Of a DNA stretch of 64,000 nucleotides, positions 7,296-57,155 are shown piece after piece; positions within the stretch are counted from its first letter, which is position 1, and every line of letters begins with the position of its first letter. The stretch comes from a virus. A program made the translations under genes and the position numbers. The notes beneath the pieces were generated by a model, which searched no databases, was not told where the DNA came from, and saw nothing but the letters and a program-made list of their open reading frames with translations. The stretch is from IMG/VR virus record IMGVR_UViG_3300045988_173694, one strand, 5' to 3'.

Positions 7296-7500
7296 TCTTC
7301 GGAAGGCTTTTAATCGTACCTTTATGGATATTGATTCAATCGTACCTTTATGGAATAGAAAGAAACATAAAACTTCCGTTGACGGTCAGACTTTTCAAAG
7401 TCTGTGGATTCAAACGCTCTTAAAGAGCCAAATTTCTACTATAGTAGATTCGAGCCAGAAGGCTCGCAGTGCCCCGGCTTAGGTCGGGGCTTTTCGTTTT
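7296..7500 (+). ncRNA. Candidate ~200-nt antisense-oriented small RNA
   Basis: -7 box TAAATTTG at 7282-7289. Internal direct repeat CAATCGTACCTTTATGGA x2 and hairpins at 7387-7404 and 7452-7465. Intrinsic terminator GCCCCG-GCTTAGGT-CGGGGC plus a T-run at 7471-7500. Confidence 0.4.
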
Positions 7501-7870: not shown

Positions 7871-7872
7871 AA

Positions 7873-8460: not shown

Positions 8461-8495
8461 ATCTATTGACTTAACCGTGCTGTCGAGGGCTGAAA
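8461..8495 (-). promoter_or_regulatory. L1 conserved 5' leader hairpin (variant)
   Basis: TTTCAGCCCTCGACAGCACGGTTAAGTCAATAGAT followed by ATG. The stem covaries to GAC/GTC. Confidence 0.6.
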
Positions 8496-8526
8496 ATAAT
8501 CTATAACCAGTGAAAAATCTCCGATG

Positions 8527-9117
8527 TTATAACGAGTAAATATCATTACCGAGAAGACGGGGAATGATTTCAGCATCAAGGATGGAATCGTAATCCCAGA
8601 GATGGGCACCGAAATCTTTCTTCAGCTTCACTACCGCCATTTTGTATGCCTCCTCGCCATTCTCGGCATAGCCTACGTACTCATAATATTTATATGTAGA
8701 ATTGACGGTGGCATGAAGACAGACGGTAAAGAAACCCTTCGGCATCGCAGCCAGCTCCTTGCGGCGCTCGTTGATCTCTCTGGCGATGCGCTGCTTTACC
8801 AGGATTTCATTGTCTTGTCTGCGCTTGCGGTCTGCTGCCTCCTTCGCTATCACGGCCTTCTCGCACTCCTCTGGAGTATCAGCGAGGGCAGGGTAGCAAT
8901 AGATGAAGGATGAAGGGCTGCAGCCTGTAGTCTGCAATTTTCTGCCTGCCTGCTCGTCCTGATAAATCTTCTTCAGAAGGGCGTGAACGTTGTAGTTAAC
9001 CTCCAACTTTCTGCCGCCCGGCTCGTTCTTATCAGTCAAACTATTAATAAACTTCTCGGCTTCTACTGCTGAGTCAATGATTACTTTCTTGTCAAAATAT
9101 ACAAAAAACTTCTTCAT
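8527..9117 (-). CDS. Hypothetical protein
   Basis: 196-aa ORF preceded by the L1 leader. Confidence 0.6.
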   Translation of the reverse strand: MKKFFVYFDKKVIIDSAVEAEKFINSLTDKNEPGGRKLEVNYNVHALLKKIYQDEQAGRKLQTTGCSPSSFIYCYPALADTPEECEKAVIAKEAADRKRRQDNEILVKQRIAREINERRKELAAMPKGFFTVCLHATVNSTYKYYEYVGYAENGEEAYKMAVVKLKKDFGAHLWDYDSILDAEIIPRLLGNDIYSL

Positions 9118-9156
9118 ATTGTCTGCGCTTCACCGCGATGCGCCTAGGGCTGAACT
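9118..9156 (-). promoter_or_regulatory. L1 conserved 5' leader hairpin
   Basis: AGTTCAGCCCTAGGCGCATCGCGGTGAAGCGCAGACAAT followed by ATG. Confidence 0.7.
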
Positions 9157-9165
9157 ATAAATATA

Positions 9166-9531
9166 TTATTGATTATTAGCTTTTGCCTCCAAAGCTATAA
9201 CAGGCGTTCCGTCTGTCTTATATAGCATTCTTACTCGTACCCATACATACCGCCCCTTCAGCCAGAAGGCTTCGTGTTCGTCCTGCCACTCTCCCGTATA
9301 TCCTCGGTTTTCCAAGGTATCGCGGGTCTTGTCGGTGATATTGTCTAGGTCGTAGGCTAACACGCCCATCGCCTTCAATTCGATGGCAACCGCAATTTTT
9401 ACCTCCTGCGGTGTTCGTGGATAGTCTTGATCTGAACAATCATGCACACCCATTAACTTGTCTATATTGATAATAGATGTAAGCAAGGATTGGATTTCTA
9501 CAAAATTCAAATTAAAGGAAATTGTTTTCAT
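9166..9531 (-). CDS. Hypothetical protein
   Basis: 121-aa ORF preceded by the L1 leader. Confidence 0.6.
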   Translation of the reverse strand: MKTISFNLNFVEIQSLLTSIINIDKLMGVHDCSDQDYPRTPQEVKIAVAIELKAMGVLAYDLDNITDKTRDTLENRGYTGEWQDEHEAFWLKGRYVWVRVRMLYKTDGTPVIALEAKANNQ

Positions 9532-11785: not shown

Positions 11786-12430
11786 TTAGGCTGCCTTGCC
11801 CTTGTCTATATCGTCGATAAAGTTTAATGTGCTCACCTGGTCACTAACCTTATAATAGGCGTAAATCTCAGGGCGCTCATCGGTATATCCTTCTGCCTCT
11901 AATTCTGCCTTCACGATATAATAGAGCATGTAGGCCAGATAGTTTGCCTGGTGATAAGCATTCGTATTGAATAGTACCCAGCCTCCCCAGTCGTCGATGT
12001 CGTTACTAAGGAGGGAGATAAAACCACTTGAGCTGGTGTGATTCTCCTTGATCCAGCCGGCTATCTTATCACGGTGATTTATCACCTTCTCTATAATTGC
12101 TTTCTTTGCCTGATGAGTAAGACTGATACGAACTTCGCAAGCATCATTCACGTAATTATAGAAACGTGGCTGCCATACCTGGAGAAATTCAAGTTTAATA
12201 TCCTCGTGGATATATTCTTGCATCCATTCTTCCCAAACGTCGGTGTACTTCTCGCAAACCGCCTTCTGATACCCCTTGTAATCGACGGTGAAATCCTTAT
12301 CCTCCTCCGCGCCTTCCTCAACGCTATAATTATAAACATCATCGTCCGGGCTCCAGATGGAGCAATAAAAGCCTTCAAAGCTGGCTAAACGTGCTTTGCA
12401 CACTGTTGTAAATTTCTTTTTCTTTTCCAT
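11786..12430 (-). CDS. Acidic hypothetical protein
   Basis: 214-aa ORF with an L2 block upstream and a hairpin GGCAGCGGTTAGGCTGCC downstream. Confidence 0.6.
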   Translation of the reverse strand: MEKKKKFTTVCKARLASFEGFYCSIWSPDDDVYNYSVEEGAEEDKDFTVDYKGYQKAVCEKYTDVWEEWMQEYIHEDIKLEFLQVWQPRFYNYVNDACEVRISLTHQAKKAIIEKVINHRDKIAGWIKENHTSSSGFISLLSNDIDDWGGWVLFNTNAYHQANYLAYMLYYIVKAELEAEGYTDERPEIYAYYKVSDQVSTLNFIDDIDKGKAA

Positions 12431-17670: not shown

Positions 17671-18108
17671 ATGGAAGGAAATAATAAACCAAAATCGGAA
17701 ATCAATCTCCGTAAACTGATGCAGAAATTAGGCTTGGGCACAAATGCTTTTGCCGAGAAATGCGGCATGTCATCGCAATCGATGTCGCAGTTCCTCCGCA
17801 ACAAGTCGTTAACGACAAACACCATCTATCGCATAGCCACAGCTTTGGATATAGACCCTCGTGATATGTTCTTCCCGACAGAGGAGAAGAATGATCTTTT
17901 CTCGAATGCTGATAAGAAAGAGCATGAGGGCGAAACTCTGAATGCTACGCTGGGGGGCGATTTGCCGGAAGGTGTCACCTGCAGAGACGTGAAGTTTGTG
18001 CAGCAGGCAGAAGAAAATCAGCAGCAGATGATTCAGACTTCCACCTTCTGCCCTCACTGCGGCAAGAAAGTAAGAGTGGGAGTGGTACTACTATCGGGGG
18101 AATGTTGA
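17671..18108 (+). CDS. XRE-family HTH regulator with C-terminal zinc-ribbon-like CxxC
   Basis: INLRKLMQKLGLGTNAFAEKCGMSSQSMSQFLRNKSLTTNTIYRIATALDIDPRDMF is a typical HTH_3 domain. C-terminal CPHCGKKV. Confidence 0.75.
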   Translation: MEGNNKPKSEINLRKLMQKLGLGTNAFAEKCGMSSQSMSQFLRNKSLTTNTIYRIATALDIDPRDMFFPTEEKNDLFSNADKKEHEGETLNATLGGDLPEGVTCRDVKFVQQAEENQQQMIQTSTFCPHCGKKVRVGVVLLSGEC

Positions 18109-18175
18109 GTGTTAAATGTTGAATTGCCTACGGACTCAATGGCGCTAGCCTAATTCAACATTCAACATTCAACAT
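18101..18175. repeat. HAP copy 2
   Basis: Same arms and core. Overlaps the XRE stop codon. Confidence 0.9.
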
Positions 18176-18216
18176 AATGATTGATAATGTATAACTCTTA
18201 AAACAAAAATGAAGAA

Positions 18217-19075: not shown

Positions 19076-19182
19076 ATTGAGTGTTGAATGTTGAATGTTG
19101 AATGTTGAATGTTGAATTGCCTGACGGACTCAAGGGCGCTAGCCTAAATCAACACTCAACACTCAACATTCAACACTCAATT
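19076..19182. repeat. HAP copy 3
   Basis: Longest arms. Followed by a T-run on the plus strand, so probably a terminator for the lipoprotein gene. Confidence 0.9.
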
Positions 19183-22447: not shown

Positions 22448-23929
22448 TTAATCCAAATCATAAGTATATCTGCCACCTTTGTCTACTCTAAAGAGGAAAG
22501 TATCATTAACCGGCAGCAGATTCTTCTCCCTTACTTCTTTGAGCTTCAGTCTTATGAGCTTCGAAGACGTACAGAACTTATATTCTGTTCCAGGAGCATC
22601 TTTCATTTCGTACAGAACCCAACATCGGCCGCTCTTGCCGTTCACTTCAACATCATCTTCAAAGTCTAATATATTGATGATGGAGTGATTCTGACACAAC
22701 ATCGTCTGATTATACTCTGGTACAGAAAATATACGTTTTCCGTTCTTGTCTACCGAGTATTTCGGTGATACAATTCCAATATCCTTAAAACTCATATTCT
22801 TTTTTCTTTTAAATTCGTTTTTATAATTTTCGGGGTAATCTCCAACAATCTTCTTCCAAAGATGCTTGCACTTGCCCCACCTTGCTATTCCCCAATACGC
22901 TCCGATAAGTTCCTGTCGCCTTTTACGGCTCTTAACCCTACCGAAAGACTTTGCCGCCTTAACCTTTGTCCGTCTGCGCATCCTTATGTTATTTCGAGAA
23001 TAGACGTAACCGACAAAATCTAGATTTCTGCCTTTCACGCCTTTCTCTTCGTCATGCAGCTCCGCTACGTGACCGCTAGCTTTCAGACAGAACCCATATT
23101 GATTGCACCAGTAATCCAATCTTCCGAGTAATCGAATAGCTTCTTCCTTTGTTTCAGCGAAGAAGGTAATATCGTCACAATGCCGATGATAGCCTTTTGC
23201 ATGCTCGATATGTACCATAGCGTAGTCTACCAAGCTCAATGCAAGATTGCCTAGCATCTGACCGATAGGATTACCGAGTGTTACACCTCGCCTGCATCCA
23301 AGGTACTTCATTCCACCCTTATCTGCCCAAATGCAGTACTTCTGCTTGCGCTCGTATTCTTCTATCATCAGAGGTTCAATCTCTACAGAATAATCGAGCA
23401 TGGTCTGCTCTATCAAGTCGATGAATAAATCATCGTCTATATACCGCCTGAGTATTATAAGCAGAACAGGATGAGGTATTGTCAGATAATACTTTCTGAG
23501 GTCTCCTTGCCCATAATAAGCCCATTTCGGATGCCTTCTGATAGCTCGTTGTGTTCTCAATGCACCGAATACTTGACCTTTACCTTTTCTGCCAGCACTC
23601 GAATCGTATATAAGCACTCGTTCAACTATCGGTTCGAGCACTATTTTGATAGCGTGAAAGAGAACATTCCAAGGGTCGAAGTGCATAGGGCATATCTTTC
23701 TTGCCTTATTCTCAGATACTATGTCAACCTCCTTATATTCCTTCTTAGGATAAATGCCGAGAATGAGCATATTCTGTATGCGGTCGATAATCTTATCCTT
23801 ATCTCGGATATATCTCCTAGCGAACCATGTGTTCTTATCATCTAACGCATTATAGGCATCATCACCGCCCTGTTCCAATGTTTCCCTCTTTACGAGTTCA
23901 TTCATCAGATTCTTTACCTTTGCTGTCAT
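22448..23929 (-). CDS. DGR reverse transcriptase (atypical, with C-terminal extension)
   Basis: RT motifs RKICPMHFDPWNVLFHAIKIVLEP, GDLRKYYLTIPH, GVTLGNPIGQMLGNLAL and HCDDITFF (where YxDD is expected). 220 nt downstream of the TR on the same strand. Confidence 0.85.
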   Translation of the reverse strand: MTAKVKNLMNELVKRETLEQGGDDAYNALDDKNTWFARRYIRDKDKIIDRIQNMLILGIYPKKEYKEVDIVSENKARKICPMHFDPWNVLFHAIKIVLEPIVERVLIYDSSAGRKGKGQVFGALRTQRAIRRHPKWAYYGQGDLRKYYLTIPHPVLLIILRRYIDDDLFIDLIEQTMLDYSVEIEPLMIEEYERKQKYCIWADKGGMKYLGCRRGVTLGNPIGQMLGNLALSLVDYAMVHIEHAKGYHRHCDDITFFAETKEEAIRLLGRLDYWCNQYGFCLKASGHVAELHDEEKGVKGRNLDFVGYVYSRNNIRMRRRTKVKAAKSFGRVKSRKRRQELIGAYWGIARWGKCKHLWKKIVGDYPENYKNEFKRKKNMSFKDIGIVSPKYSVDKNGKRIFSVPEYNQTMLCQNHSIINILDFEDDVEVNGKSGRCWVLYEMKDAPGTEYKFCTSSKLIRLKLKEVREKNLLPVNDTFLFRVDKGGRYTYDLD

Positions 23930-24150: not shown

Positions 24151-24260
24151 TTATAAATAAGTGAGACGCACACCGTAGTTCGTATTGCGATTGCCGAAGT
24201 CGTTATTCGAATTGACGTAGAACGAGCCGCAGTTAAGCGCATTCCTGGCGTTACCACCAA
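24151..24260 (-). repeat. DGR template repeat (TR)
   Basis: 110 bp, gapless match to 24411-24520. All 15 differences lie at TR adenines (coding-strand sense). Confidence 0.9.
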
Positions 24261-24360
24261 AGAGGAGCAAAATGTCTCTCGCCACCTTTTTTATTTATTT
24301 TTCTTTATTCTCTATTGACACCATTTTTGCTTCGGTGGAGCAAGCTCCACATCGGGTGTC

Positions 24361-24379
24361 GCAGACCCTACAGGTCTGC
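24361..24379. other. GC hairpin at the 3' end of the DGR target gene
   Basis: GCAGACC-CTACA-GGTCTGC, straddling the stop codon 24368-24370. Confidence 0.7.
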
Positions 24380-25642
24380 TCCGTTTACGTATGTCGGATT
24401 TCCGCAAAAAGCGAGACGCACACCGAAGCTCGGATTGCGACAGCCGAAGCCGTCACCCGAATTGACGCAGAACGAGCCGCAGAGAAGCGCATTCCAGGCG
24501 TCACCACCAAAGAGGAGCAACTGCCCAGTGCTGTTTGCCCATGAGTAGTCACAATAGTAGTTTGCGCTGTTCGAATTATCAACGTTGATATTCTTAGGCA
24601 TGATGTCGAAGAAGTCTCCGAGAACAAGGCTCAGTACACCGCCACTTCTAGTGTTACGTGTGAACGTGCGATAATCACCGACAGGATGACCAGTAAGCTC
24701 AGAAGCAGAAGGCATTCTGTTGCCTTTGTAGACGAAGGCTTCCGAACCAGTCTGACCGCTATTGTTGCTACTACCGAAGTAGATGCCTTGTATCATCTGC
24801 CAATACCATCCCCAAGGGTTCTCGATACCGAAGAGGTTCACATGGCATGCGTCAGCGTTTCCTGTTAACTCAGCCAAGCTGATTTTACCATTATTATCTC
24901 CAAGGCTCTTAGTAGCACCCGTTGTAAGACCATTAACCTTATCCCATAAATTAGCACTACCTGTAGGACCACAACCGAACTTAGCCTGTGAGTTGCTGTT
25001 TTCGCTCTCCCACAAAACGAGCATAGGAATAATCTTCAATGTCTCATAGTCGAGCAGACCGAAGTTCTTACCGTTGTTACGTGCATAAGTAAAGAAATCA
25101 CTGATTGATATATTGTTCGATACGCCAAGTCCACTACGGCTTACAAGCTTATTGTTAACAATACTAGCCATGTATGCGCCAAAGGTAGGATGGTCGATAT
25201 AATGCTCAGAGATAGGATAAGTAGAACCCCACAGGATATTGCATCCTGCTGACGCATCGTACTTCACAAGATAGTAGAGACGATGAGGGGTATGGAACAT
25301 GATATGACCCTTAGTCTCATCAACGGTTGTGCCATCCTCGAATACAGCAGAGTTGCTACGAGACAATTTAGCCATTCTTCCATCGTTAGTAAGCAAATAT
25401 CGACCGAGTGATGATTTGAACTCATTCCACTTTGTCTGATTACCGCAAACTCCCCATTGCGTATCGTCTGTCTCTTTAAGATATGTTCCCCAAGCAATAA
25501 GCGAGAGGTCAAGCTGGTTAGTACTGATAGAGTTAGCCAAGTCAGACAGCTTGATACGTCTGAGAGAGCCGCCAACCTCTATCAATAAGGTATCACCCTT
25601 AACCATTGATGATACCGATGCTACAGTTGCAAGATTTTTCAT
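24368..25642 (-). CDS. DGR variable target protein (putative receptor-binding tail protein)
   Basis: The VR encodes the C-terminal FGGDAWNALLCGSFCVNSGDGFGCRNPSFGVRLA, which resembles the C-type-lectin-fold ends of DGR targets. Located in the fibre module. Confidence 0.85.
   Translation of the reverse strand: MKNLATVASVSSMVKGDTLLIEVGGSLRRIKLSDLANSISTNQLDLSLIAWGTYLKETDDTQWGVCGNQTKWNEFKSSLGRYLLTNDGRMAKLSRSNSAVFEDGTTVDETKGHIMFHTPHRLYYLVKYDASAGCNILWGSTYPISEHYIDHPTFGAYMASIVNNKLVSRSGLGVSNNISISDFFTYARNNGKNFGLLDYETLKIIPMLVLWESENSNSQAKFGCGPTGSANLWDKVNGLTTGATKSLGDNNGKISLAELTGNADACHVNLFGIENPWGWYWQMIQGIYFGSSNNSGQTGSEAFVYKGNRMPSASELTGHPVGDYRTFTRNTRSGGVLSLVLGDFFDIMPKNINVDNSNSANYYCDYSWANSTGQLLLFGGDAWNALLCGSFCVNSGDGFGCRNPSFGVRLAFCGNPTYVNGADL
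24411..24520 (-). repeat. DGR variable repeat (VR)
   Basis: See TR. Ends 40 nt before the stop codon. Confidence 0.9.
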
Positions 25643-25669
25643 ATTTTGCTATTTTTATATGTTACTAAA

Positions 25670-26875
25670 TCAGTTACCAATTAAGTAATCTCCGTTCTCA
25701 TCAACGAGAGGTTCAGAGCCATCGGAGAAGAAATCGAAGGTCGGCTTATACTCAGCATCACATCTTATCTCCAGCTCATCATCAGCAGTCTCACCTAGAC
25801 CAGTATCAGAGATATTGAAGATTGCCGTATCTCCCTCTTGCCATTGCCTTGTTGTCGTAGCACCGCCATTCTCGGCAACAGTACTCCAATTAAGTTTCAG
25901 CACGTTGGCAGGGCATTCCACGATATTGCCCTCAGAATTGACAAGAGCAACCTGCTGTCGGTTATCAACTCCAGGAGATATATCTACGTTCTGTCCTGCC
26001 GATACGCTGTATCTCGGGTATGTTCGGGAAACAGAGATTTGCTTGTTGCATACTTCCGTATCGCCAACAAAAGCCCTGATAACGTATGATGCAGAATTAA
26101 TCAGTCTAAGGTCAAGTGTGATGTAGCTATTGCTGATTGCTACCACCTCATTCATTCCTACGCTAATCTGAGCCATCGAAGAACCGCTCATCTTGTAGAG
26201 CTTGATAGTGTAGCCAGAAGTAATGCTCTTTGCACCCTTATAGATGTGGAGAGGAATCTTTCTGAGATAAGCCTTCTCGTCAATGCAAGCGTTCCTTACA
26301 GCATCAGATGCTGCTATCATTCCATGTGCCACCTTGTAGTCGTACAGAAGCAACTTGTCTGTCATTGGGTTGTAGACGATAGTCTCATCATCATCCAATG
26401 CCATAGAGTAGGCATCATCGCTCTTAGCAACCGTGTTCAGAACCACTTCATCGGTAAGGATAGGAACATTGACGTTGGTTCGATAGTCTACGATTTCAGC
26501 CTTGAATCTCAATGCAAATCGTTCTGCTACTGCCACGTTACGAAAGATGGTGAGGTCTCCACGGGTAGCACCATCCTGATTGATTGAGTAATCTGATGCT
26601 GCCCACACCTTGCTTATATCCTTGCCGTTAACGAGCCATACCATATTGGCAAGTACCGCATTGGATTGCTGATACTTCCATGTACCATCGCTTGCGTAAG
26701 CTGTAATGTCTGGGTGCAAGACACAAGGTGTGTTGGCTCGGTTCGGCTCGTAGCTGCTGTTAACCACGTTATATACTTGCGTGGTAGGAGAACCACCCGA
26801 TACGCACACGATTGATTGTGCTGTATTGAGTAGAGCGAAAGACCTTCTAATTCTTACTGCGCTGTTTGTTGCCAT
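25670..26875 (-). CDS. Putative tail fibre/baseplate-associated structural protein
   Basis: 401-aa beta-rich ORF in the unidirectional tail module. Confidence 0.5.
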   Translation of the reverse strand: MATNSAVRIRRSFALLNTAQSIVCVSGGSPTTQVYNVVNSSYEPNRANTPCVLHPDITAYASDGTWKYQQSNAVLANMVWLVNGKDISKVWAASDYSINQDGATRGDLTIFRNVAVAERFALRFKAEIVDYRTNVNVPILTDEVVLNTVAKSDDAYSMALDDDETIVYNPMTDKLLLYDYKVAHGMIAASDAVRNACIDEKAYLRKIPLHIYKGAKSITSGYTIKLYKMSGSSMAQISVGMNEVVAISNSYITLDLRLINSASYVIRAFVGDTEVCNKQISVSRTYPRYSVSAGQNVDISPGVDNRQQVALVNSEGNIVECPANVLKLNWSTVAENGGATTTRQWQEGDTAIFNISDTGLGETADDELEIRCDAEYKPTFDFFSDGSEPLVDENGDYLIGN

Positions 26876-30247: not shown

Positions 30248-30269
30248 AAATGTTGAATGGGATTGTAAA

Positions 30270-30353
30270 ATGTTGAGTGTTGAATGTTGAATGTTGAATT
30301 AGCCTAACGGACTCAACGGCGCTAGCCTAATTCAACATTTAACATTCAACATT
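30270..30353. repeat. HAP copy 4
   Basis: Arms plus core AGCCTAACGGACTCAACGGCGCTAGCCTAA. Confidence 0.9.
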
Positions 30354-31404
30354 AATTAAAGGGGTCGCCGTTAATACCTAGGGTGGCGGTAAAGGAAACG
30401 GAATACATATTCCTGTTGGTATCGTCCTTAATGGTAAGCTCATCTTCAAGATTGATGGTGCAAGGAAGCCAGGCATCATTCGCTTTCAGCCATACGTGCT
30501 CAGACATCAGGAACTCATGGAGATACCACTGCTGCCATGCCTTGGTAAGCGGGTCGCTCTGATAGAGCCAGCTTTCACGATCATTCTGCTTCTTGATAGC
30601 GGCACGGGAGAACTGATTGAAGGTTTCCTGAATAGCTTTCGTATATTGCGTGCTCTCGACATTCATCTTCTGAGAGTAGGATTTCGGCACGCTGATACTC
30701 TCCAGGCAACCGAAGCGGTTAATGAAACGGAAGGTGGTACGGTCTTCAGCTTCAGAGGACGGTAGAGCATAGATAGGGTGCCCCTGAATGCTCTGCGCAC
30801 CTTCCTTCGTGATTTCCTGCTCCCTAGATACAGGGGCGGTCAGTGAGCTGCTGGTAGCTAAGTTCTGCCCTGCGCTATAGGAGACTGGATAAACAAAGCT
30901 CTCGCCTACAACGGCTATTTCGTGGGTATCAGTCGGTTTGCAGGAGAGAATGGTGACAGCCTTCGTTACGCCCGATTTCAGGCGCTCTATATCGCTGAAG
31001 GCTCCGGCTATACAGCGGAGGTTGGTACTCCCACCCGATACGGGTTTCTGTGGGTAATAGACTTCACCCACATTGGTATGCACCTCACCGTTGTTATCCA
31101 TATACTCATCGAAGGCTTTGATATACCAACTTACCACTGGGTAGGTGGATGGTGTAGCGGTATACTTGTAGCTATCCAGCGTAATGCGAAGAGCAGAGGA
31201 AATATCGAGCGATACATCTCTTCCCTCGGTGGTAACAGGAATGGTAAGCTTATTGGTTTCGTAACTGCCCGTGCCATCATCAAAATGCACTTCTACGATG
31301 ACACGATGAAAAGATGGCTTTGTAGCCACGGAAGGGGTGATGGTAAAGGTTATCGGGTTTCCTGCAAAGACAGAACCCGATGTGAGATTGATTTTCTGTG
31401 CCAT
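30352..31404 (-). CDS. Putative virion structural protein
   Basis: 350-aa ORF directly downstream of the ACP gene. Confidence 0.5.
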   Translation of the reverse strand: MAQKINLTSGSVFAGNPITFTITPSVATKPSFHRVIVEVHFDDGTGSYETNKLTIPVTTEGRDVSLDISSALRITLDSYKYTATPSTYPVVSWYIKAFDEYMDNNGEVHTNVGEVYYPQKPVSGGSTNLRCIAGAFSDIERLKSGVTKAVTILSCKPTDTHEIAVVGESFVYPVSYSAGQNLATSSSLTAPVSREQEITKEGAQSIQGHPIYALPSSEAEDRTTFRFINRFGCLESISVPKSYSQKMNVESTQYTKAIQETFNQFSRAAIKKQNDRESWLYQSDPLTKAWQQWYLHEFLMSEHVWLKANDAWLPCTINLEDELTIKDDTNRNMYSVSFTATLGINGDPFN

Positions 31405-31406
31405 AG

Positions 31407-31679
31407 TTATTTAGTGTTGAGTGTTGAATGTTGAATGTTGATTTTCTGCTCGGTGAGCGCAATTACATCCGAAACGAGCTTGCAATCTTTCGCCTCTTCC
31501 GGGGTAATCTTGATATGGAACATCATTTCCACCTGCTGAATCATATCGAGGAAATCAATAGACTCCAGTTCTACCTCGTCTCTGATATTAGAGGCAGTGG
31601 TTACTTCGTGCTTTACCCATGATGTTTTCAGGCTGTTCACGATAGCGATAATGCGAGGAGTTATTTCTTCTTTTTTCAT
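31407..31679 (-). CDS. Acyl carrier protein-like
   Basis: 90 aa. ELESIDFLDMIQQVEMMF matches the (D/E)S(L/I)D phosphopantetheine site plus helix II. The C-terminal INIQHSTLNTK is encoded by a HAP half-arm. Confidence 0.65.
   Translation of the reverse strand: MKKEEITPRIIAIVNSLKTSWVKHEVTTASNIRDEVELESIDFLDMIQQVEMMFHIKITPEEAKDCKLVSDVIALTEQKINIQHSTLNTK
31411..31441. repeat. HAP half-element (left arm only), copy 5
   Basis: GTGTTGAGTGTTGAATGTTGAATGTTGA inside the 3' end of the ACP ORF. Confidence 0.8.
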
Positions 31680-31695
31680 ATTACTTATTATTAAT

Positions 31696-31736
31696 GGACC
31701 AGCGATAAAATCGCTGGGAACGGAAGCTTAAAGGGG
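31696..31736. repeat. SL element copy B
   Basis: GGACCAGCGATAAAATCGCTGGGAACGGAAG between the KS stop and the ACP start. Confidence 0.85.
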
Positions 31737-31761
31737 TAAGGTTCTTTTTACCCTTTTACCT

Positions 31762-32967
31762 TTAAAAAGCCTTTGAGATGACAAATGAGGAGTTTGTACC
31801 CCCAAAACCAAAGGCATTACAGAGGATATGATGAGGATCATAATACTTAGGGCGCATCACCAGGTTAAGATGAGAGAAGGCGTTCTCCTCGGTGGTGGCT
31901 GCATGAAACAGACGGCCATAAGTGAACATGATTACGGCTTGCACAGCTTGCGATACACCTGCCATCCAACACTCGTGGCCAGTCATACCCTTTGTAGCTA
32001 CTACGTTCGGACAGATAGGGAAGATATTCTCTATCGCCTTCGCCTCGGCTTCATCGCCCATCGTGGTACCTGTAGCATGAGCAAGTACTACGTCTATCAT
32101 GCCTTCATCCAATCCTGCGTTCTCGATAGCATTCAGCATAGATACTTCTTCCTGATAACTATCAGGGGTAGTGATAGCTTTTCCATTGGTAGAGAAGCCA
32201 TAGCCGGAAAGGGAAGCGAATGAATGCACCTTCTCTTCTTTCAATCGAAGACTATCCGATGATTCGAGGATGATGCAGGCTGCGCCACCAGATGGTGCCA
32301 ATCCGTTTCTGCCTTTACCAAACGGCTGTACTTTATCAGGTGAGAAGACACCGAGGGCATCGAAAGCCTCCATACAATAATTACTTGTTGTTTCCTGCGC
32401 GCCAATCACAATTACCATTTCAGTCTGTTTGCTATCGAGCAACATCTTTGCCAGTCCGATGGCGTGGCCACCTCCTGCACAGGCTGCGCTTACGGTGAGC
32501 GATAAACCATGAATGCCGAGGATAGTAGCCAGGTTCATGCTGATAGTGGAATTAAGTGAACGAAACAGGGTTGTTACCGGAAGTCTACGATTAGAGATGT
32601 TCTTTTTTACGTGAGAGACCACAACTTTGCTTTCATAACATTCTGAGTCGTTACTTACGATAAGTGAAACATTATGGTTTTCAAGAAACTCCTTACTGAC
32701 CTTTGCTTTCTTCAGCGCCTCGAATACCGCATCGAGCACATAAAAACCATGTGCAGGCATACATTCGTATTGCGCATGGGTAAGTATATCCAGACACTCT
32801 GCTTTCCAACTAGGTACATTGCCACATAAATCGGAATTGTATTTATCGCGGCATTCGTCGTGATGTAATCCGCATTTACCCTTATAGAGGTTCATGGCTA
32901 CTTCTCTGGTACTTCTGCCTAGGGCAGAATGAATACCGGTTCCGGTAATCAAAATTTCTTTATTCAT
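31762..32967 (-). CDS. Beta-ketoacyl-ACP synthase (KAS I/II type, Cys-His-His)
   Basis: TVSAACAGGGHAIG (active-site Cys), AHATGTTMGD (His), GMTGHECWMAG (His) and NAFGFGGTNSSFV. Confidence 0.8.
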   Translation of the reverse strand: MNKEILITGTGIHSALGRSTREVAMNLYKGKCGLHHDECRDKYNSDLCGNVPSWKAECLDILTHAQYECMPAHGFYVLDAVFEALKKAKVSKEFLENHNVSLIVSNDSECYESKVVVSHVKKNISNRRLPVTTLFRSLNSTISMNLATILGIHGLSLTVSAACAGGGHAIGLAKMLLDSKQTEMVIVIGAQETTSNYCMEAFDALGVFSPDKVQPFGKGRNGLAPSGGAACIILESSDSLRLKEEKVHSFASLSGYGFSTNGKAITTPDSYQEEVSMLNAIENAGLDEGMIDVVLAHATGTTMGDEAEAKAIENIFPICPNVVATKGMTGHECWMAGVSQAVQAVIMFTYGRLFHAATTEENAFSHLNLVMRPKYYDPHHILCNAFGFGGTNSSFVISKAF

Positions 32968-33008
32968 TTTTATTTCATTTTTATGTTATAAAACATATTT
33001 TCTATTTA

Positions 33009-33033
33009 AAAGCTTTTGCCCTTACAGGGCGTA
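33009..33033. repeat. THE partial copy (first hairpin only)
   Basis: AAAGCTTTTGCCCTTACAGGGCGTA, overlapping the stop codon of ORF 33022..35823. Confidence 0.75.
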
Positions 33034-35823
33034 TACCGTTAACTCTACTTCGCCCATGCCCGTCTTGGCATCGATGGTGGTATTCACCCTGTCTATGAGG
33101 CATTTCATACCGCCTATGTTCCACCATTCCTGCCAGTGGTTCGGTATATCGGCCACTTGCGCTACGGTAGTGGTACATCTTACCATAAACTTCTTTCTGT
33201 TCAGAAGAAAATAGGCGTAGGGGAGGACGAAGGTATCAAAGAGACCACGGGAGCGAATCTTCTTAACTACCTTACCGTTTTTATCTACCTCATCTTTATC
33301 ACAAAGTACTACATTTTGATACTTCGGATCACTTAACCACGATGGTTCCTTGAAAGCACGTATCTTGAGCGAGAATTTTTCACCTTCGCCCGTTCCTTCC
33401 TGAATACCATTATAGTCAAATTCATTGCCCATCATATCCAGTGAATCGCATGCCAGGGCATACTTACCAGATACGGTACGCCATTTGGACGTTCCGAAGT
33501 GGTCGTAATTATAATCGTAAGACTGGCGGGTAGCATCGCTACCACCACCTCGCATCAAAGCAACCGCATATCCCCAGCGTGAATCATCCTGCAACGGAGA
33601 ATTGCCATCATCGGTGCTCGACGGGTCGTAGCTTTCTACGAGTGATAGTGTCTGCTGCATGTAGAAATCACAGAAAGCAGTAGAGATAGTCTGATTGATA
33701 ATCTGCTCCACAAACTCATGCTCCATATCCTCATCTACATAAGCACAGAGGATAGGCTGACTATCGGTGATGGTTACACCATATTTCTTGCCGTTGTAGG
33801 AGTCGATTGCCTCGTGAGAGCCATAGGCAGCTTCTATCTCCTTGAAATAGTTCACATCATTGAACGGAACAGGAGTAAAATCTACCGAAATATCGTGAAT
33901 AAAATCTTCGTTCTCATTGCTGCAATCTCCATATTCTACACCCTTAAACTGACCTACCTCAAAGAGTACCGGTTTCAAGTCGGCTGTCGTGGTTGCATCG
34001 CCATTTACCTTTACTCGGTAAGCATTGCCCGTCTTGCGGTCGATATAACAATGCTTATCTCCACTACTCAGATTATGGAAGAAATCGATGTAGTCGAGAT
34101 TATAGACGGTGGAGTTATCGCCACTATCAGGCGCAGGGTAATCGATGTAATCATAATCGGTAGAATAACCCATGTTCTTGTTTCTACGGCTATCGAGTAC
34201 ATTCTGCCGCTGATCTTTTGCATCACCTTCTGCAGAATAGCGCATACGCACACCTGTAATCTTCTCGGTCATCGGAGTCATAGAATGGATATTGGCATGA
34301 AATGTTCTTGCCTCATTACCGCTCTTGCGCAGCACATCACGAGTAAGATAAGCTGTCACCTTCTTCTGCTCGTAATCATACGAAAACTTGATACCGAAGG
34401 CACTCTCAAGAGATGAGATTACGGTGCTCACACTCTCGTCAGGGAAGTTGCCGCTATTGGCTACCATATTGAGCACGTTTGCCTGAACATTGAACTTGCT
34501 GATTTTTGCCTCAATGCTAATACCGGTAACTTTGCCTCCATCATCACGAACCTCACCAACCTGTATATGCTCGGTGGTGCCTTCAGGTGTGTGGAGTGTT
34601 AATTCCTGCACGTCCTTATTCTCTGCCTTCACGATGTTTATCTTTCCACCGCAACCACGGCTTTCCAGCCATGAATTGATATGCTCCTGACTTTGGAAAT
34701 AACCCGTCTTGATTTCGCCAGCTTTCTTCTTCTTGGCGATAACTTCCGCATCGGTTTCGCTGTAATAAGTACCGTGATGAGGGTGCTGAATGGTATCGTA
34801 GCTGCATACGGTCGTGAAGAAGCAGAGATGCTTCAAATCCTCTATCTCCATCAATGCCTTCTTGTCGAAAGTTACGCCCAGATAGGCAAAAAGGCAATCG
34901 AGGAAATAGAGCACATAGAAGCAGATACCCGACTGCGGACGTTTTGCATCCAATACCCAATAAGGATAAAGGTCTTCGTTCGTCCAGGTACAATCCTTCG
35001 TGCTGATTACACCACTATCTGTTTTTCCGTCATCATCCAAGCCATGATGCTTATAGCAGATGCGGGCATTGCAATAGGTAGCGGCGCGCCCTGCTCCATC
35101 AGTCTCACCATAAGCGGCAGCTGTATTGATATAGTTACCGTTGCTGGCGATAGCTGGCTCATTCACCTTATGGTTCTGAGGATAGGAGCGCTCAGACAGA
35201 ATCTTAGCATCACCTTTTTTATGCCGGGTATCGGTAGAAGTCCATTCTACACAGTTTGCAGGATAAGAGAAACCCAAGGCTTGCGGCTCCAATACCTTAC
35301 TTACGCTTACATGGGCTGCCCTAATTTCGTGAGTTTCGGTCTTATCGTCCTTATGTTTGCCTCCAGTAACAAAAACATTTACTTTCACCACAGGATCACT
35401 CTCAATATCCACCCTTACATTACCGATTTTCTCACCAATAATAATCTGGTCCTTTACCTGGATATCACGACACTGCAGGTCGCTGATAAGCTCGCTGAAA
35501 CTCTGCGTGCTGGCATCGATGTTCATAGAGAGAGAATTGGTTATCTCCTCACCATCCTGCATTACCAGGGTTCCGCTGCGGAAAGGCAATCCATCGGCAT
35601 GAATACGGGTAGGAAGATGCTCCATGTTCACGGCTTTTACCGCTGCATGAACATCTTCGATGTTCTTTACCAGCCATCGGTTGCCGTCTAGCGGAATAGA
35701 GAAAGGATAGGAGAACATTTCCGTATCGTTGAACACGGGGTTCTGGTCCTCAATATCTATTGAGAAATCATCGGGCAAAGCTACCGGCTTGTCGTTTATC
35801 AATATCGTAAGATGTGAGTTCAT
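33022..35823 (-). CDS. Large baseplate/tail-associated structural protein
   Basis: 933-aa ORF. ATGA overlap with the upstream ORF. Confidence 0.55.
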   Translation of the reverse strand: MNSHLTILINDKPVALPDDFSIDIEDQNPVFNDTEMFSYPFSIPLDGNRWLVKNIEDVHAAVKAVNMEHLPTRIHADGLPFRSGTLVMQDGEEITNSLSMNIDASTQSFSELISDLQCRDIQVKDQIIIGEKIGNVRVDIESDPVVKVNVFVTGGKHKDDKTETHEIRAAHVSVSKVLEPQALGFSYPANCVEWTSTDTRHKKGDAKILSERSYPQNHKVNEPAIASNGNYINTAAAYGETDGAGRAATYCNARICYKHHGLDDDGKTDSGVISTKDCTWTNEDLYPYWVLDAKRPQSGICFYVLYFLDCLFAYLGVTFDKKALMEIEDLKHLCFFTTVCSYDTIQHPHHGTYYSETDAEVIAKKKKAGEIKTGYFQSQEHINSWLESRGCGGKINIVKAENKDVQELTLHTPEGTTEHIQVGEVRDDGGKVTGISIEAKISKFNVQANVLNMVANSGNFPDESVSTVISSLESAFGIKFSYDYEQKKVTAYLTRDVLRKSGNEARTFHANIHSMTPMTEKITGVRMRYSAEGDAKDQRQNVLDSRRNKNMGYSTDYDYIDYPAPDSGDNSTVYNLDYIDFFHNLSSGDKHCYIDRKTGNAYRVKVNGDATTTADLKPVLFEVGQFKGVEYGDCSNENEDFIHDISVDFTPVPFNDVNYFKEIEAAYGSHEAIDSYNGKKYGVTITDSQPILCAYVDEDMEHEFVEQIINQTISTAFCDFYMQQTLSLVESYDPSSTDDGNSPLQDDSRWGYAVALMRGGGSDATRQSYDYNYDHFGTSKWRTVSGKYALACDSLDMMGNEFDYNGIQEGTGEGEKFSLKIRAFKEPSWLSDPKYQNVVLCDKDEVDKNGKVVKKIRSRGLFDTFVLPYAYFLLNRKKFMVRCTTTVAQVADIPNHWQEWWNIGGMKCLIDRVNTTIDAKTGMGEVELTVYAL

Positions 35824-36538: not shown

Positions 36539-36539
36539 A

Positions 36540-36630
36540 ATGTTGAATGTTGAGTGTTGAATGTTAAATTAGCCTAGCGGACGCAAGGGCGTATGCCTAA
36601 TTCAACATTCAACACTCAACATTCAACATT
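36540..36630. repeat. HAP copy 6
   Basis: Arms plus core AGCCTAGCGGACGCAAGGGCGTATGCCTAA. Confidence 0.9.
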
Positions 36631-37800: not shown

Positions 37801-37890
37801 AATGTTGATTGTTGAATGTTGAATGTTGAATTGCCTCACGGACTCGATGGCGTACGCCTAATTCAACATTCAACACTCAACATTCAACAC
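37801..37890. repeat. HAP copy 7
   Basis: Arms plus core TTGCCTCACGGACTCGATGGCGTACGCCTAA. Confidence 0.9.
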
Positions 37891-39002
37891 AAGATAGGGG
37901 TGACGAAGATACGAGAACCTTTTTGGTTGTTGTCGTAACCTTCGCTGCCGTCCCTGCTATCCGATGATGAAGCGCTGGAGGCGTTACTCGTTGATGATGA
38001 AGGGGTGCTGCCTTCTGCAGCGCTATCGGCTTTGGCTGCATCGAGTTTCGCTTGCGCTTCGGCTTCCTCCTTCTTCAGCAACCGATGAATGCTTTCCCTT
38101 ACGGTGATGGCATCGTTATGCGCCGTGGATCGGGTCAACTTATCGAAGTTGATAACTGATGTACGCTCCTTGAGATAGGCGGCTACAAGCTGACGTGCCT
38201 TCTTCAGCATCTTGTCGTTCTCATCGGCTTGCAGGAGACGAGGTATGAAATCTTCGCCAAATGCTTCTTCCAGGTATTCGCTCTGAATGAAAAGCATATC
38301 GGGGATGAGACGCACAAACTTATCTCTGTTGCCGTAAATATCGAGATACGGCTGCAAAGACTCGCAGGTAGGGAAAAGCAGATCTCGATGGTAGTAATAG
38401 TACTTACTCTCCTGCCAAAGGGTTACGATTTCCTCTATCGCTTCATGCCGTTTCTTCTCGGCTTCGGCTGCATCATCTTTACCGCTATCGGTTCCTTCAT
38501 CTGTTCCTTCTGTATCATCGCCCGCTGCCTCGATAGGCATAGGAGTATTCACTTCCTTTGCCCATCCCTCCAAGAGGGAAAGCAGGTTATTGAGCGAGGT
38601 CATGGCCGACTGGCGGTAGCTTTCCTTGCCCTGCGCTATCTGCTTGTCGGTGGCTACGGCATAGTCGTTGCTGGAGGCTACGTTGATACCGGAGCCATTC
38701 ACAGAAAGTGCCTGCTTCTCGATGTTCTGTGCCATCGCATCATTCACAATCATGCGCTGCGCATAAAGCAGAAGCTCATTCCATGGGTCGTTGACGTAGG
38801 TACCATCACCGACAGCATCGCAGAAGACTGAGGGTTCTATGCTCGCATACTGCTTGCTGAGACGGTCGTATAGAGATGCTCCCAGGCGAGGTTTCAAAAA
38901 GTCCTTTTCGCTATTGTCGAGCATACCCTGCAGGTTGGCTACATCGTCCACGGCATTGCTGGGGAGGTGAAGCCTGAGTTCTTGATTCGTGAAGAGTATC
39001 AT
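37884..39002 (-). CDS. Hypothetical virion-module protein
   Basis: 372-aa ORF with a Ser-rich C-terminus. Confidence 0.55.
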   Translation of the reverse strand: MILFTNQELRLHLPSNAVDDVANLQGMLDNSEKDFLKPRLGASLYDRLSKQYASIEPSVFCDAVGDGTYVNDPWNELLLYAQRMIVNDAMAQNIEKQALSVNGSGINVASSNDYAVATDKQIAQGKESYRQSAMTSLNNLLSLLEGWAKEVNTPMPIEAAGDDTEGTDEGTDSGKDDAAEAEKKRHEAIEEIVTLWQESKYYYYHRDLLFPTCESLQPYLDIYGNRDKFVRLIPDMLFIQSEYLEEAFGEDFIPRLLQADENDKMLKKARQLVAAYLKERTSVINFDKLTRSTAHNDAITVRESIHRLLKKEEAEAQAKLDAAKADSAAEGSTPSSSTSNASSASSSDSRDGSEGYDNNQKGSRIFVTPILC

Positions 39003-39010
39003 ATCTTTTT

Positions 39011-39134
39011 AATGTTGAGTGTTGAATGTTGAATGTTTATTTTAATGTTGATTGTTGAATGTTGAATGTTGAATTGCCTCACGGACTCGATGGCGTATGC
39101 CTAATTCAACATTCAACACTCAAAATTCAACATT
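39011..39134. repeat. HAP copy 8 (with an extra left arm)
   Basis: Additional arm at 39011-39037, then the full element. Confidence 0.9.
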
Positions 39135-45833: not shown

Positions 45834-45917
45834 AATGTTGATTGTTGAATGTTGAATGTTGAGTTGCCTCACGGACTCAAGGGCGCTAGCCTAATTCAAC
45901 ACTCAACATTCAACATT
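45834..45917. repeat. HAP copy 9
   Basis: Arms plus core TTGCCTCACGGACTCAAGGGCGCTAGCCTAA. Confidence 0.9.
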
Positions 45918-52833: not shown

Positions 52834-54456
52834 TTACTCCTCGCCTCGCTTGAAACGCTCGAAGGCTGCCTTGCGCTCGGCATTGGTCTTATACTTCGAT
52901 GGGTCGAACTCACGGAGGTTCTGAGCCTTTGCGCCCTCACCGTTATTCTGAGGTGCTGCACCCTGTGCTGGCTCCTCACCTGGGTTCTCATTCAACTCAG
53001 CGATCTGAGCGTCCTTGTCGGCGATGGTCTGCTGGGCAGTAGCGAGTGAAGCCTGGGCGGTCTTCAACTCCTCATCTACCTTAGCCTTCTCCTCATCAGC
53101 CTTTGCCTTTGCATCGTTGAGGGCTTTGATGTCCTCATCGGCTTTAGCCTTTGCCTCTTTCAGGTTCTTGATTTCCTCGTCCTTCTGGGCGATGGTCTCA
53201 GCGAGTGCGTCGTGCTTTGCCTGAAGGTCAGCAAGACTCTGCTCTGCTGTGGTGGCTTTCTGCTTTGCATCAGCCACAGCCTGCTCCTGCGATGCGAGAT
53301 GAGCTTCGAGGGTGTCGAGCAATGGGGCATTCATGAATGCGCCATCCTCCTTCACCTCAATCTGCTGACCATCCTGCATACCGCAAGCGGCGTTGATCTT
53401 TGGATAATTTGCCATATTGATTTGATTTTGGTTATTTGATAAATGTTGATTGTTGAATGTTGAATGTTGACTTTCCGGGGTGTTCTCTTCCGGTTCCGGC
53501 TTTTGGATAGAAGCCTCTCGGTTGATAGGCTCGGCGGTGCCGTTGTAGAGAGCGAAGCAGCGCTGAACGCAACCCATAAAGGTAGACTGGTCGTCCATAA
53601 GGATTCCCTTCACGTCTTCAGCACTGAATATCTTTCCATGAAGATGCTCATCTTTTGCGTTAGGGCAAGCCTTTTTTACATCAGCTCTGAACTCAACACC
53701 CAGTTCGGCAAGCTCTTTTACGAGTTCCTTGCTGTTGTTCTTGTTGGCGATGTCACGGTAAGCCTTATTCTTGTCGAATGACTCCGGGTCATACTCCTCG
53801 TGATAAGTCTCATCTGTGTATTTATCCTTTGAGCCATTAGCCAAAGTATAGAAGGCAGCCATCACGCCGATACAACCAATTTCATCCTTCGGGTTCATGT
53901 AATATCGCTCATCGCAAAGAGAAGCGAGATACATACCTGCGCTGTCACACATACCATCTACCAGGGCGATGGTCTTCTGACCCTTGGAGTGGGCATAGTC
54001 GATAGCAAGTGCATAATCGTTCTTAGCCCAAGCCGAACCGCCAGGAGTATTGATGATAAAAAGATGACCTCGGCAAAGCGGATGATCAGCTGCACGCATC
54101 ATCATATCGCGATGGTCGATAGAACCATAAGAGCAATATCCACCATTCCGGGTGATAGGACCATCTACAGTGAGAACCGAAACGAACGGGAAGTTCTGCG
54201 CCCGCTCATCCTCTTCCGGATAGTCGAGCTGATAGTTACCCTTCACCTGCTTGCCATCCTCAGAAATCTGATATTCCTCCGGATAGTAGGTGTTGCCTTT
54301 TTCATCCTCTGCAGTGACGAATCCACAAGTCTTTTCCGGTTTGGTAAACACTGTATGAGTATTTAGGTTCTGCTCAATCGATTTGCGAATGCCATGCACA
54401 AAATCGGGGTTCACCATCCACTTCTTTTCGGTCAGAATTTCATAAAGACCTTTCAT
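52834..54456 (-). CDS. S49/ClpP-like prohead protease fused to a coiled-coil scaffold domain
   Basis: FIINTPGGSAW...VDGMCDSAGMYLASL...IGCIGVMAAF (S49-like). The C-terminal 170 aa is A/K/E/D coiled coil. A HAP half-arm is embedded at the junction. Confidence 0.7.
   Translation of the reverse strand: MKGLYEILTEKKWMVNPDFVHGIRKSIEQNLNTHTVFTKPEKTCGFVTAEDEKGNTYYPEEYQISEDGKQVKGNYQLDYPEEDERAQNFPFVSVLTVDGPITRNGGYCSYGSIDHRDMMMRAADHPLCRGHLFIINTPGGSAWAKNDYALAIDYAHSKGQKTIALVDGMCDSAGMYLASLCDERYYMNPKDEIGCIGVMAAFYTLANGSKDKYTDETYHEEYDPESFDKNKAYRDIANKNNSKELVKELAELGVEFRADVKKACPNAKDEHLHGKIFSAEDVKGILMDDQSTFMGCVQRCFALYNGTAEPINREASIQKPEPEENTPESQHSTFNNQHLSNNQNQINMANYPKINAACGMQDGQQIEVKEDGAFMNAPLLDTLEAHLASQEQAVADAKQKATTAEQSLADLQAKHDALAETIAQKDEEIKNLKEAKAKADEDIKALNDAKAKADEEKAKVDEELKTAQASLATAQQTIADKDAQIAELNENPGEEPAQGAAPQNNGEGAKAQNLREFDPSKYKTNAERKAAFERFKRGEE
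53442..53470. repeat. HAP half-element inside a CDS, copy 10
   Basis: AATGTTGATTGTTGAATGTTGAATGTTGA, translated as STFNNQHLSNN. Confidence 0.8.
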
Positions 54457-56059: not shown

Positions 56060-56167
56060 AATGTTGAATGGTTTGATGAATGTTGAATGTTGAGTGTTGA
56101 ATGTTGAATTAGGCTAGCGCCCTTGAGTCCGTGAGGCAACTCAAAATTCAACATTCAACACTCAAAA
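56060..56167. repeat. HAP copy 11 (core in inverted orientation)
   Basis: The core reads AGGCTAGCGCCCTTGAGTCCGTGAGGCAA, the reverse complement of the core in copies 3 and 9. Confidence 0.9.
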
Positions 56168-57136: not shown

Positions 57137-57155
57137 TGCTATTTTTTTTTTTTTA

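Follow-up and report, generated by a model that had tools for sequence, protein, structure and literature searches.

A flexirubin/aryl-polyene-lineage ketosynthase and its acyl carrier protein as long-retained accessory cargo of a group of large phages

What use would a phage have for a ketosynthase (KS) and an acyl carrier protein (ACP), and why should the two genes lie among those for its virion? The question is raised by the IMG/VR virus record IMGVR_UViG_3300045988_173694, of which the whole 64,000-nt stretch analysed here (the window) looks like a tailed phage. Phage metabolic genes are well known, and to our knowledge specialised lipid or polyketide condensing enzymes are not a recognised phage gene class. 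An initial annotation, made from the letters alone, had described two co-directional open reading frames (ORFs), a KS and an ACP, embedded in a baseplate/tail-fibre operon. Both ORFs were recovered, on the minus strand together with every large neighbouring ORF, inside the module that extends from portal to tail genes. The locus comprises the following features.

33022..35823, minus strand: p933, a conserved 933-aa protein on the upstream flank, present in KS-bearing and KS-less relatives (synteny)
32968..33021, minus strand: intergenic stretch between p933 and KS, the upstream cassette junction, 54 nt, AT-rich and varying among relatives (sequence, cross-clade comparison)
31762..32967, minus strand: KS, 401 aa, KAS I/II fold, "TGHECWMAG" subfamily (Pfam PF00109 and PF02801; FabB/FabF alignments from the Protein Data Bank, PDB)
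31680..31761, minus strand: spacer between KS and ACP, 82 nt, two hairpins (sequence and fold)
31407..31679, minus strand: ACP, 90 aa, acidic (pI 5.3), phosphopantetheine Ser in LESIDFLD (Pfam, PHROG, NCBIfam)
31413..31440, minus strand: single arm of a CAACAYT heptamer array ("SL" element) at the ACP/p350 junction, translated as the end of the ACP (pattern search, junction comparison)
30352..31404, minus strand: p350, a conserved, mostly beta 350-aa protein on the downstream flank, directly after p933 in KS-less relatives (synteny)

Judged by its sequence, the KS is a full-length KAS I/II-type condensing enzyme with a predicted complete active site for decarboxylative Claisen condensation. 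Both Pfam domains are present (PF00109, 1.2e-25, residues 3-237; PF02801, 8.2e-18, residues 251-353), and in PDB profile alignments residues 3-399 match residues 2-400 of Vibrio cholerae FabB (4xox) end to end at 3.1e-38, the best match, with the E. coli FabB structure at about 1e-35. Cys163, His297, Thr299/301, Lys326, His331 and the Phe386/Phe388 gate occupy FabB-equivalent positions in the alignment, within the motifs SAAC163AGG, H297ATGT, ATK326GMTGH331ECWMAG and NAF386GF388GGTN, which correspond to the FabB Cys, His, Lys/His and Phe gate. The initial annotation had read SAACAGG, HATGT, GHECWMAG and NAFGFGGTN as intact and had allowed that a proper alignment might undo this; on the contrary, the catalytic residues fall on those of FabB and are invariant in 61 relatives. 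PHROGs contain no KS family, and PADLOC returned no defence-system match for KS, ACP or p933. A tblastn search of GenBank phages with the KS yielded mostly apparent bacterial contamination or prophage fabB at 23-28% identity; the best match, and the only one that high, was a 6.8-kb faecal contig at 38%.

The 90-aa product is an ACP with a predicted phosphopantetheine serine. It passes the PF00550 (PP-binding) gathering score marginally (21.0 against 20.8 bits), matches PHROG 5934 "acyl carrier protein" at 1.7e-7, and aligns end to end with several NCBIfam ACP models at up to 1.3e-10 (NF002150, residues 1-79), every one below its cut-off. The ESID site claimed by the initial annotation holds up, as in the alignment the serine of LESIDFLD falls on E. 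coli AcpP Ser36 and on its counterparts in ApeE and ApeF. The last ~11 residues (INIQHSTLNTK) are encoded by half of a heptamer-repeat element, and this tail is missing from relatives. The element that the same annotation had placed between KS and ACP is real insofar as the 82-nt spacer folds into two hairpins, one imperfect and of GGTAAAA type, the other a perfect CCAGCGAT/ATCGCTGG (-22.5 kcal/mol, z = -3.0). Spacing in relatives, however, ranges from a 4-nt overlap (-4) up to 83 nt and in a single case reaches 363 nt, and because its length varies in this way the hairpin spacer is a variable insertion, not integral to the KS-ACP pair.

Are the two genes functional? The orthologue set holds 61 KS sequences, 57 of them distinct, at 58-98% identity to the window KS. 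Cys163, His297, Lys326, His331, Thr299/301 and NAFGFGG are invariant across all 61, as is the ACP serine, and pairwise Nei-Gojobori ratios of nonsynonymous to synonymous substitution (dN/dS) are 0.09-0.17 for KS and mostly 0.16-0.30 for ACP. Because the catalytic residues are invariant and dN/dS is low, both genes are predicted to encode working proteins under purifying selection. Gene order is the same in 60 of the 60 full-length KS loci in IMG/VR, running portal-p372 (DUF6712)-p370-p217-p933-KS-ACP-p350-p686, and wherever a phage locus bears a KS, at either of the two genomic sites described below, the ACP accompanies it. Nor is the acquisition of the cassette recent, since its GC content (45.6% for KS, against a window mean of 45.2%) and unremarkable codon usage match the genome and the phage KSs form clades of their own that are not nested in host sequences.

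Is the pair then part of the virion machinery among which it sits? A search with p933 found a KS-less sister clade of 19 loci (including L123 and L125-L141), in which p933 is 45-51% identical to that of the window, with portal identity at 43% for L123 and at 70-85% for the 17 others holding one. Its module has the same order, portal-p372-p370-p217-p933-p350-p686, with p350 starting 12-90 nt past the p933 stop and neither KS nor ACP between them. Distant related phages of ~100 kb (L062, L145, L501-L511) hold the pair elsewhere in the genome and in the order ACP then KS: on one side lies a tape-measure-like gene, accompanied in some cases by a p368 homologue, and on the other primase-ThyX. Their identity to window proteins is 26-36% for the tape-measure-like protein, 39% for the p368 homologue, 41-45% for the primase, 39-41% for ThyX and 46-48% for the p686-like protein. 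In one KS-less contig checked, this alternative primase-side site lacked KS-ACP as well. Because the sister clade joins p933 to p350 without the pair, and the distant phages hold the pair elsewhere, KS-ACP is an accessory cassette: an old, mobile, selectively retained cargo module that does not appear to belong to the morphogenesis machinery. The virion operon of the initial annotation thus stands as a description of position, with the pair packed between conserved virion-module genes, but not as a functional tie.

One of the distant KS-bearing viral contigs (L510) has, besides its KS-adjacent ACP, a second ACP-like ORF ~4.7 kb downstream (11963-12184), whose matched stretch has 52% identity to E. 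coli AcpP.

From which ketosynthases does the phage enzyme derive? NCBIfam models leave it near-tied at 154-167 bits among fabF, fabB and "beta-ketoacyl-ACP synthase", all far below cut-off, and it fails the equivalog test (TIGR03150 fabF, 167 against 494; NF005935 fabB, 165 against 630). Against E. coli sequences (K-12 and the aryl-polyene (APE) locus of CFT073) identity is 27% to FabB, 24% to FabF, 21% to ApeO and 22% to ApeR, while KSs of Bacteroidota clusters reach 35-40%. When GTDB species were scanned with one genome each, relatives at 34-40% were confined almost entirely to Bacteroidota, including Chryseobacterium, Flavobacterium, Chitinophagaceae, Dyadobacter, Alistipes, Prevotella and B. 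fragilis, followed by a sharp fall to proteobacterial FabB at 25-29%. An exhaustive search of representatives added stand-alone KSs at 34-45%, one of them belonging to a 66-member cluster beside SusD/E/F, at the head of an operon ordered KS-ACP-ApeP-like-ApeI-like-MMPL-FAD oxidoreductase-ketoreductase (KR)-LolA-4HBT thioesterase.

A short loop separates these enzymes from their better-known cousins. The signature TGHE[C/M/F]WM(A/S)G occurs in all phage and Bacteroidota cluster KSs (TGHECWMAG in the window), whereas FabB, FabF, ApeO and ApeR read GH(S/L/T)LGA(A/C)G at the same position, and paralogous cluster KSs likewise lack the HExWM signature. With FabB and FabF the phage KS shares its fold, length, Cys-His-His, Lys, Thr-x-Thr and Phe-Gly-Phe gate, but GHECWMAG replaces their GH(S/L)LGAAG loop. 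In a neighbour-joining tree (73 sequences, 397 columns, 300 bootstraps) the HExWM subfamily is recovered at 83% and is sister to FabB at 80%; the chromosomal Bacteroidota clade and the window-phage clade each have 100%, the window clade and the L062/L145 phages group together at 82%, and the phage KSs lie in their own clades outside the chromosomal one. The initial annotation had left the choice between FabF/FabB and polyketide or aryl-polyene enzymes to a phylogeny, and the tree answers clearly, assigning the KS to a subfamily of Bacteroidota flexirubin/aryl-polyene clusters that is sister to FabB. Orthology to ApeO or ApeR was considered and is ruled out by the motifs and the tree.

Nearly all the chromosomal Bacteroidota loci have KR-KS-ACP, with an ApeP-like dehydratase (DH), thioesterase, KS paralogues, ApeI, LolA and MMPL nearby. 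On the Aureispira plasmid pAUEa the order is phosphopantetheinyl transferase (PPTase) ... aromatic ammonia-lyase-FabG-KS-ACP ... thioesterase-KSs-chain length factor (CLF)-polysaccharide deacetylase-LolA, which matches the published flexirubin layout of Chitinophaga pinensis, where FlxA is a tyrosine ammonia-lyase (TAL), FlxB a reductase and FlxC a KS (PMC3992019). The phage KS resembles these Bacteroidota enzymes (the FlxB-FlxC position of C. pinensis, Aureispira WP_264793619 and gut Bacteroides) over its full length, in the TGHE[C/M/F]WM(A/S)G and AHAT(S/G)T signatures, in having an adjacent ACP gene and in the joint grouping at 83%; the chromosomal gene is equated with FlxC by gene order and the published description, not by direct sequence comparison. 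Unlike them, the phage KS has no adjacent KR, DH, thioesterase, LolA, MMPL or aromatic starter enzymes. The E. coli system of ApeO and ApeR, with the ACPs ApeE and ApeF (CFT073), is likewise type II, ACP-dependent and dedicated to an outer-membrane lipid pigment, and shares with the chromosomal relatives of the phage KS the ApeP/ApeI-like DHs, LolA, MMPL and thioesterase; its two KSs, however, form separate clades.

The compact operon with a single HExWM-type KS is found in two gut metagenome contigs (L142 and L143, 8001-16387) and in B. fragilis (L175), and in the literature searched we found no description of the product of this gut Bacteroides KS-ACP-ApeP-ApeI-MMPL-FAD oxidoreductase-KR-LolA-4HBT operon. 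A phage-like 55.5-kb contig (L144, Logan ERR2144946) carries KR (adh_short)-KS-ACP at 7318-9423, the same trio that heads the Bacteroidota clusters, with a glucosaminidase gene upstream and OmpA-like and Band_7 genes downstream.

What, then, would the phage pair work with? According to the initial annotation the window lacks an acyltransferase, a reductase, a dehydratase and a PPTase, and our searches agree: by Pfam, none of the 69 other window ORFs encodes a PPTase, malonyl/acyl transferase (FabD), short-chain reductase, FabA/FabZ/ApeP-type dehydratase, thioesterase or adenylating enzyme, nor does any of 52 further ORFs in the rest of a related 104-kb contig (loci L301, L365, L428, L272). The relative's remaining ORFs include a GNAT, two radical-SAM proteins, a PAPS-reductase-like protein, pol III beta, methylases, an exonuclease and a 2013-aa minor-tail/tape-measure-like protein. 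The GNAT, the two radical-SAM, the PAPS-reductase-like and several DNA methylase genes lie at 18.7-58 kb of IMGVR_UViG_3300045988_150239 (L365, L428, L272), and could form a DNA-modification module.

Products of the E. coli APE system are reportedly exported to the outer membrane by LolA/MMPL-type proteins. For flexirubins and APEs generally, LolA- and MMPL-type proteins have been described as the route to the outer membrane (PMC3992019), and this fate, together with the ancestry of the pair, makes a role in an envelope lipid the most economical. We therefore favour, at a probability of about 0.55 for the whole, the reading that KS and ACP descend from the KR-KS-ACP core heading Bacteroidota flexirubin/aryl-polyene-type lipid-pigment clusters, and that they constitute a long-retained moron, or auxiliary metabolic module, which would use host AcpS, FabD, KR and DH to make an acyl chain for an envelope lipid. 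A host PPTase of AcpS or Sfp type would first convert the phage apo-ACP into its holo form, and host FabD would then load malonate onto it, by analogy with type II polyketide synthases (PKSs), which commonly borrow the malonyl transferase of fatty acid synthesis (FAS). The KS, presumably a homodimer with an acyl primer on Cys163, should be competent for decarboxylative Claisen condensation with the malonyl-ACP, and the resulting beta-ketoacyl chain may be handled by host KR and DH, taken either from FAS II or from a host ApeP/ApeI/KR cluster. The net effect would be phage-controlled elongation on a private carrier, which may make, boost or redirect an acyl or polyene lipid of the envelope during infection or carriage.

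It is tempting to speculate further. Few biosynthetic clusters are as widespread in Gram-negative bacteria as those for aryl polyenes and flexirubins, whose products lie in the outer membrane that phages must cross. Perhaps the private KS-ACP plugs into a host aryl-polyene/flexirubin-like outer-membrane lipid pathway, or replaces its rate-limiting elongation step, and so remodels the Bacteroidota outer membrane; this more specific proposal is distinctly tentative. Were it true, the consequences could be a block to superinfection, changed vesiculation or oxidative-stress tolerance, or an envelope readied for release, and the phage would be the first virus with a type II polyketide/aryl-polyene synthase core as a conserved gene. 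The presence of ParA and a Rep-like initiator in the window makes plasmid-like carriage a possibility, in which case the pair would serve as a conversion factor. Should a lipid of this kind indeed be its target, the pair would also offer a handle on how phages remodel Bacteroidota envelopes and on the product of the gut Bacteroides KS-ACP-DH-MMPL-LolA operon.

Several points weigh against the envelope-lipid reading. KS and ACP alone cannot complete an elongation cycle, and the compatibility of host KR, DH, FabD and AcpS with a divergent ACP is assumed; indeed, the phage ACP is ~33% identical to a Bacteroides cluster ACP, over 36 residues only. The check for partner genes outside the window used a relative whose KS is ~89% identical, and left out ~1.1 kb and ORFs shorter than 60 aa. 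The tree was built by a distance method only, with moderate support of 43-82% at its deeper nodes, and the KS-less clade was covered in part, around two loci only. Packing is tight, with 2 nt from the ACP stop to the p350 start and 33 nt between p933 and KS in L045, and the cassette has no recognisable promoter of its own, no Bacteroidota-type promoter model having been applied. Since it is packed into a co-directional string of structural genes and lacks such a promoter, the cassette is probably expressed late with the virion genes, which is odd timing for a helper of lipid synthesis.

The absence of downstream enzymes from the window and from the rest of the relative's genome would also suit a rather unlikely alternative, that phage ACP and KS take over host FAS or act as a sink, competing with AcpP/FabF for malonyl units, AcpS and partner enzymes and thereby throttling or diverting membrane lipid. 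ACP-only genes are common in phages (PHROG 5934), and an ACP divergent from both housekeeping and cluster ACPs is what would be expected of a private, non-exchangeable carrier. Yet a pure decoy needs neither the strictly kept Cys, both His, Lys, both Thr and both Phe nor a low dN/dS along the whole KS, and the ancestry of the pair lies in a specialised-lipid cluster, not in housekeeping FAS.

Less probable still is a virion-linked role, in which the pair makes an acyl chain for a tail or baseplate protein, or a lipid cofactor for penetration of the host envelope. The place of the pair between two conserved virion-module genes in 60 full-length relatives, with very short gaps and probable late co-transcription, is what recommends it. 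Nevertheless, the sister clade keeps the same module with p933 joined to p350, the distant phages keep the pair beside the primase, and p933 and p350 yield no lipid-related family matches. No ACP-to-protein acyltransferase was found in the window or in the rest of the relative's genome, where the sole acyl-group transferase detected is the GNAT, with no assigned target. As for the suggestion in the initial annotation that the pair acylates a virion protein, it has no enzymatic basis here, because a KS catalyses carbon-carbon condensation and not acyl transfer to protein.

That the cassette is a recent, neutral hitch-hiking moron or decaying, functionless cargo is very improbable, despite its absence from the sister clade and despite variable junctions with hairpin repeat elements. 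Recent acquisition and pseudogene status are ruled out by the invariant active site, the low dN/dS and a GC content and codon usage that have been ameliorated. Within the full-length loci, KS identity goes down to 58%, and the phage KSs fall into old, separate clades. The initial annotation had pictured a simple recent moron as one absent from all related phages and flanked by recombination scars. Instead, all 60 full-length close relatives carry the pair, so that it is not a recent strain-specific moron, and comparison of the cassette junctions across clades revealed no integrase, transposase or att-like repeats. The junctions carry short hairpin elements, which in some strains flank the cassette. 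An assembly or binning artefact, with bacterial DNA mis-joined into a phage contig, is suggested by several GenBank "phage" KS matches that resemble bacterial contamination, but can be dismissed: at least 60 independent IMG/VR contigs show the same junctions, as do 85-110 kb ENA/Logan contigs from many samples, and the nearest bacterial KS is only ~40% identical.

At the upstream junction of L001 (9866-10000; also L003, L010 and L017), the last ~14 nt of p933 with its stop (GCCCTGTAAGGGCA) are directly duplicated around an insert, a ~66-nt GC-rich hairpin just upstream of KS. The window is without this insert.

How does the cassette compare with phage cargo already on record? Phage ACPs (PHROG 5934) are already known, as are auxiliary metabolic cassettes in general, and predicted Rhodobacteraceae prophages have been reported to carry fabG-acpP-fabF trios as auxiliary metabolic genes (PMC8224337). 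Like the phage pair, those trios and ACPs are type II FAS-like parts without a full pathway and are read as modifiers of host metabolism. The trios, however, are housekeeping fab genes in host gene order, whereas the present phages have a divergent cluster-type KS with an ACP and no KR, fixed across a large clade of ~100-kb phages known solely as metagenome contigs, and at two sites. Classical morons, such as lom and bor of lambda, sit in the tail-gene regions of tailed phages. The cassette resembles them in being optional, placed between conserved structural genes and missing from relatives of otherwise identical order, and differs in having no demonstrable promoter or terminator of its own, no compositional deviation and an ancient rather than sporadic retention. 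The literature searched held no description of the KS-ACP pair of this phage group; undescribed there are a flexirubin/aryl-polyene-lineage KS-ACP fixed in a large group of ~100-kb phages, its two sites and its subfamily signature. TGHE[C/M/F]WM cleanly marks out a KS subfamily which present family models fail to distinguish from FabB/FabF, and the spread of the pair is considerable, with many more sequences in other public assemblies besides the 60 full-length IMG/VR loci.

The remainder of the window is phage-like in content. It encodes an S49-type head-maturation protease, a portal homologue matching the portal of Polaribacter phage Leef_1, two PHROG "tail proteins" (24368-26875), a reverse transcriptase, DNA methyltransferases, ThyX, a BT4734-like primase, a GH108 lysin, ParA and a Rep-like initiator. 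Neither GenBank phages nor PLSDB plasmids contain a megablast match to the region, and the phage has no close cultured or deposited relative in either set. Near-identical contigs of 85-110 kb occur in many samples among public metagenome assemblies (ENA/Logan), some of them labelled "MAG TPA: Caudoviricetes/Bacteriophage sp.".

Around the cassette, the virion module has the portal homologue upstream, and PHROG "tail protein" matches and a tail gene targeted by a diversity-generating retroelement (DGR) downstream; p686 matches tail-fibre-sized PHROGs that lack an assigned function. For p933, profile searches of Pfam, PHROGs, NCBIfam and the PDB gave no family or structure match that would bear out the "baseplate-like" label of the initial annotation, and its AF2 model has a pLDDT of 27.8, the homologue search having returned only sequences at least 93% identical. 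The AF2 model of p350 reaches a pLDDT of 62; a PDB profile search with p350 found nothing, and its Foldseek matches, all of low TM score (Ig/FN3, complement, tail-tube/Dit-like), were not used as evidence.

The DGR is complete, with its reverse transcriptase at 22448-23929 (minus strand), template repeat at 24156-24270 and variable repeat at 24406-24520. The variable repeat lies inside the 3' end of the tail gene 24368-25642, which places it at the C-terminus of a PHROG "tail protein". The two repeats of 115 nt are 86% identical, and in the coding-strand alignment all mismatches are at template-repeat adenines, the adenine-specific mark of DGR mutagenesis.

Genes of plasmid type are a Rep3-like initiator (110-1393) and a ParA-like partition ATPase (2446-3381), and no integrase was seen among the Pfam matches of the window. 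The combination suggests a phage-plasmid or carrier-state lifestyle.

The 714-aa window ORF at 61537-63681 corresponds to the C-terminal portion of a much longer ORF, 2013 aa, on a related contig (L272, 6722-12763), whose ORF set has a PhageMin_Tail (tape-measure-like) match, most likely from that ORF. The tape-measure-like gene adjoins primase and ThyX, far from the portal-to-tail block, an unusual module order.

Finally, the element read through at the end of the ACP belongs to a family dispersed over the window. CAACAYT elements are intergenic hairpins in which each arm is an array of 3-4 tandem heptamers, the two arms being inverted relative to each other and separated by about 40 nt, and the pattern has 70 matches in the window against 0.11 expected. 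A pattern search located them as follows.

8-105: CAACAYT hairpin
18101-18176: CAACAYT hairpin
19080-19177: CAACAYT hairpin
30269-30353: CAACAYT hairpin
31413-31440: CAACAYT single arm
36539-36630: CAACAYT hairpin
37801-37891: CAACAYT hairpin
39011-39134: CAACAYT hairpin
45834-45917: CAACAYT hairpin
53442-53469: CAACAYT single arm
56079-56169: CAACAYT hairpin
57155-57238: CAACAYT hairpin
61414-61441: CAACAYT hairpin

The "SL" elements were considered as scars specific to the cassette and are ruled out as such by their presence at more than 10 intergenic sites in the window and by other heptamers at the same junctions elsewhere. The hairpins might serve as terminators or as binding sites for regulators, or might be small mobile elements. 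In related strains the same junctions hold analogous hairpins built from arrays of GGTAAAA or TATAAAC, and because the heptamers differ in this way between strains, the hairpins form a fast-evolving repeat family.

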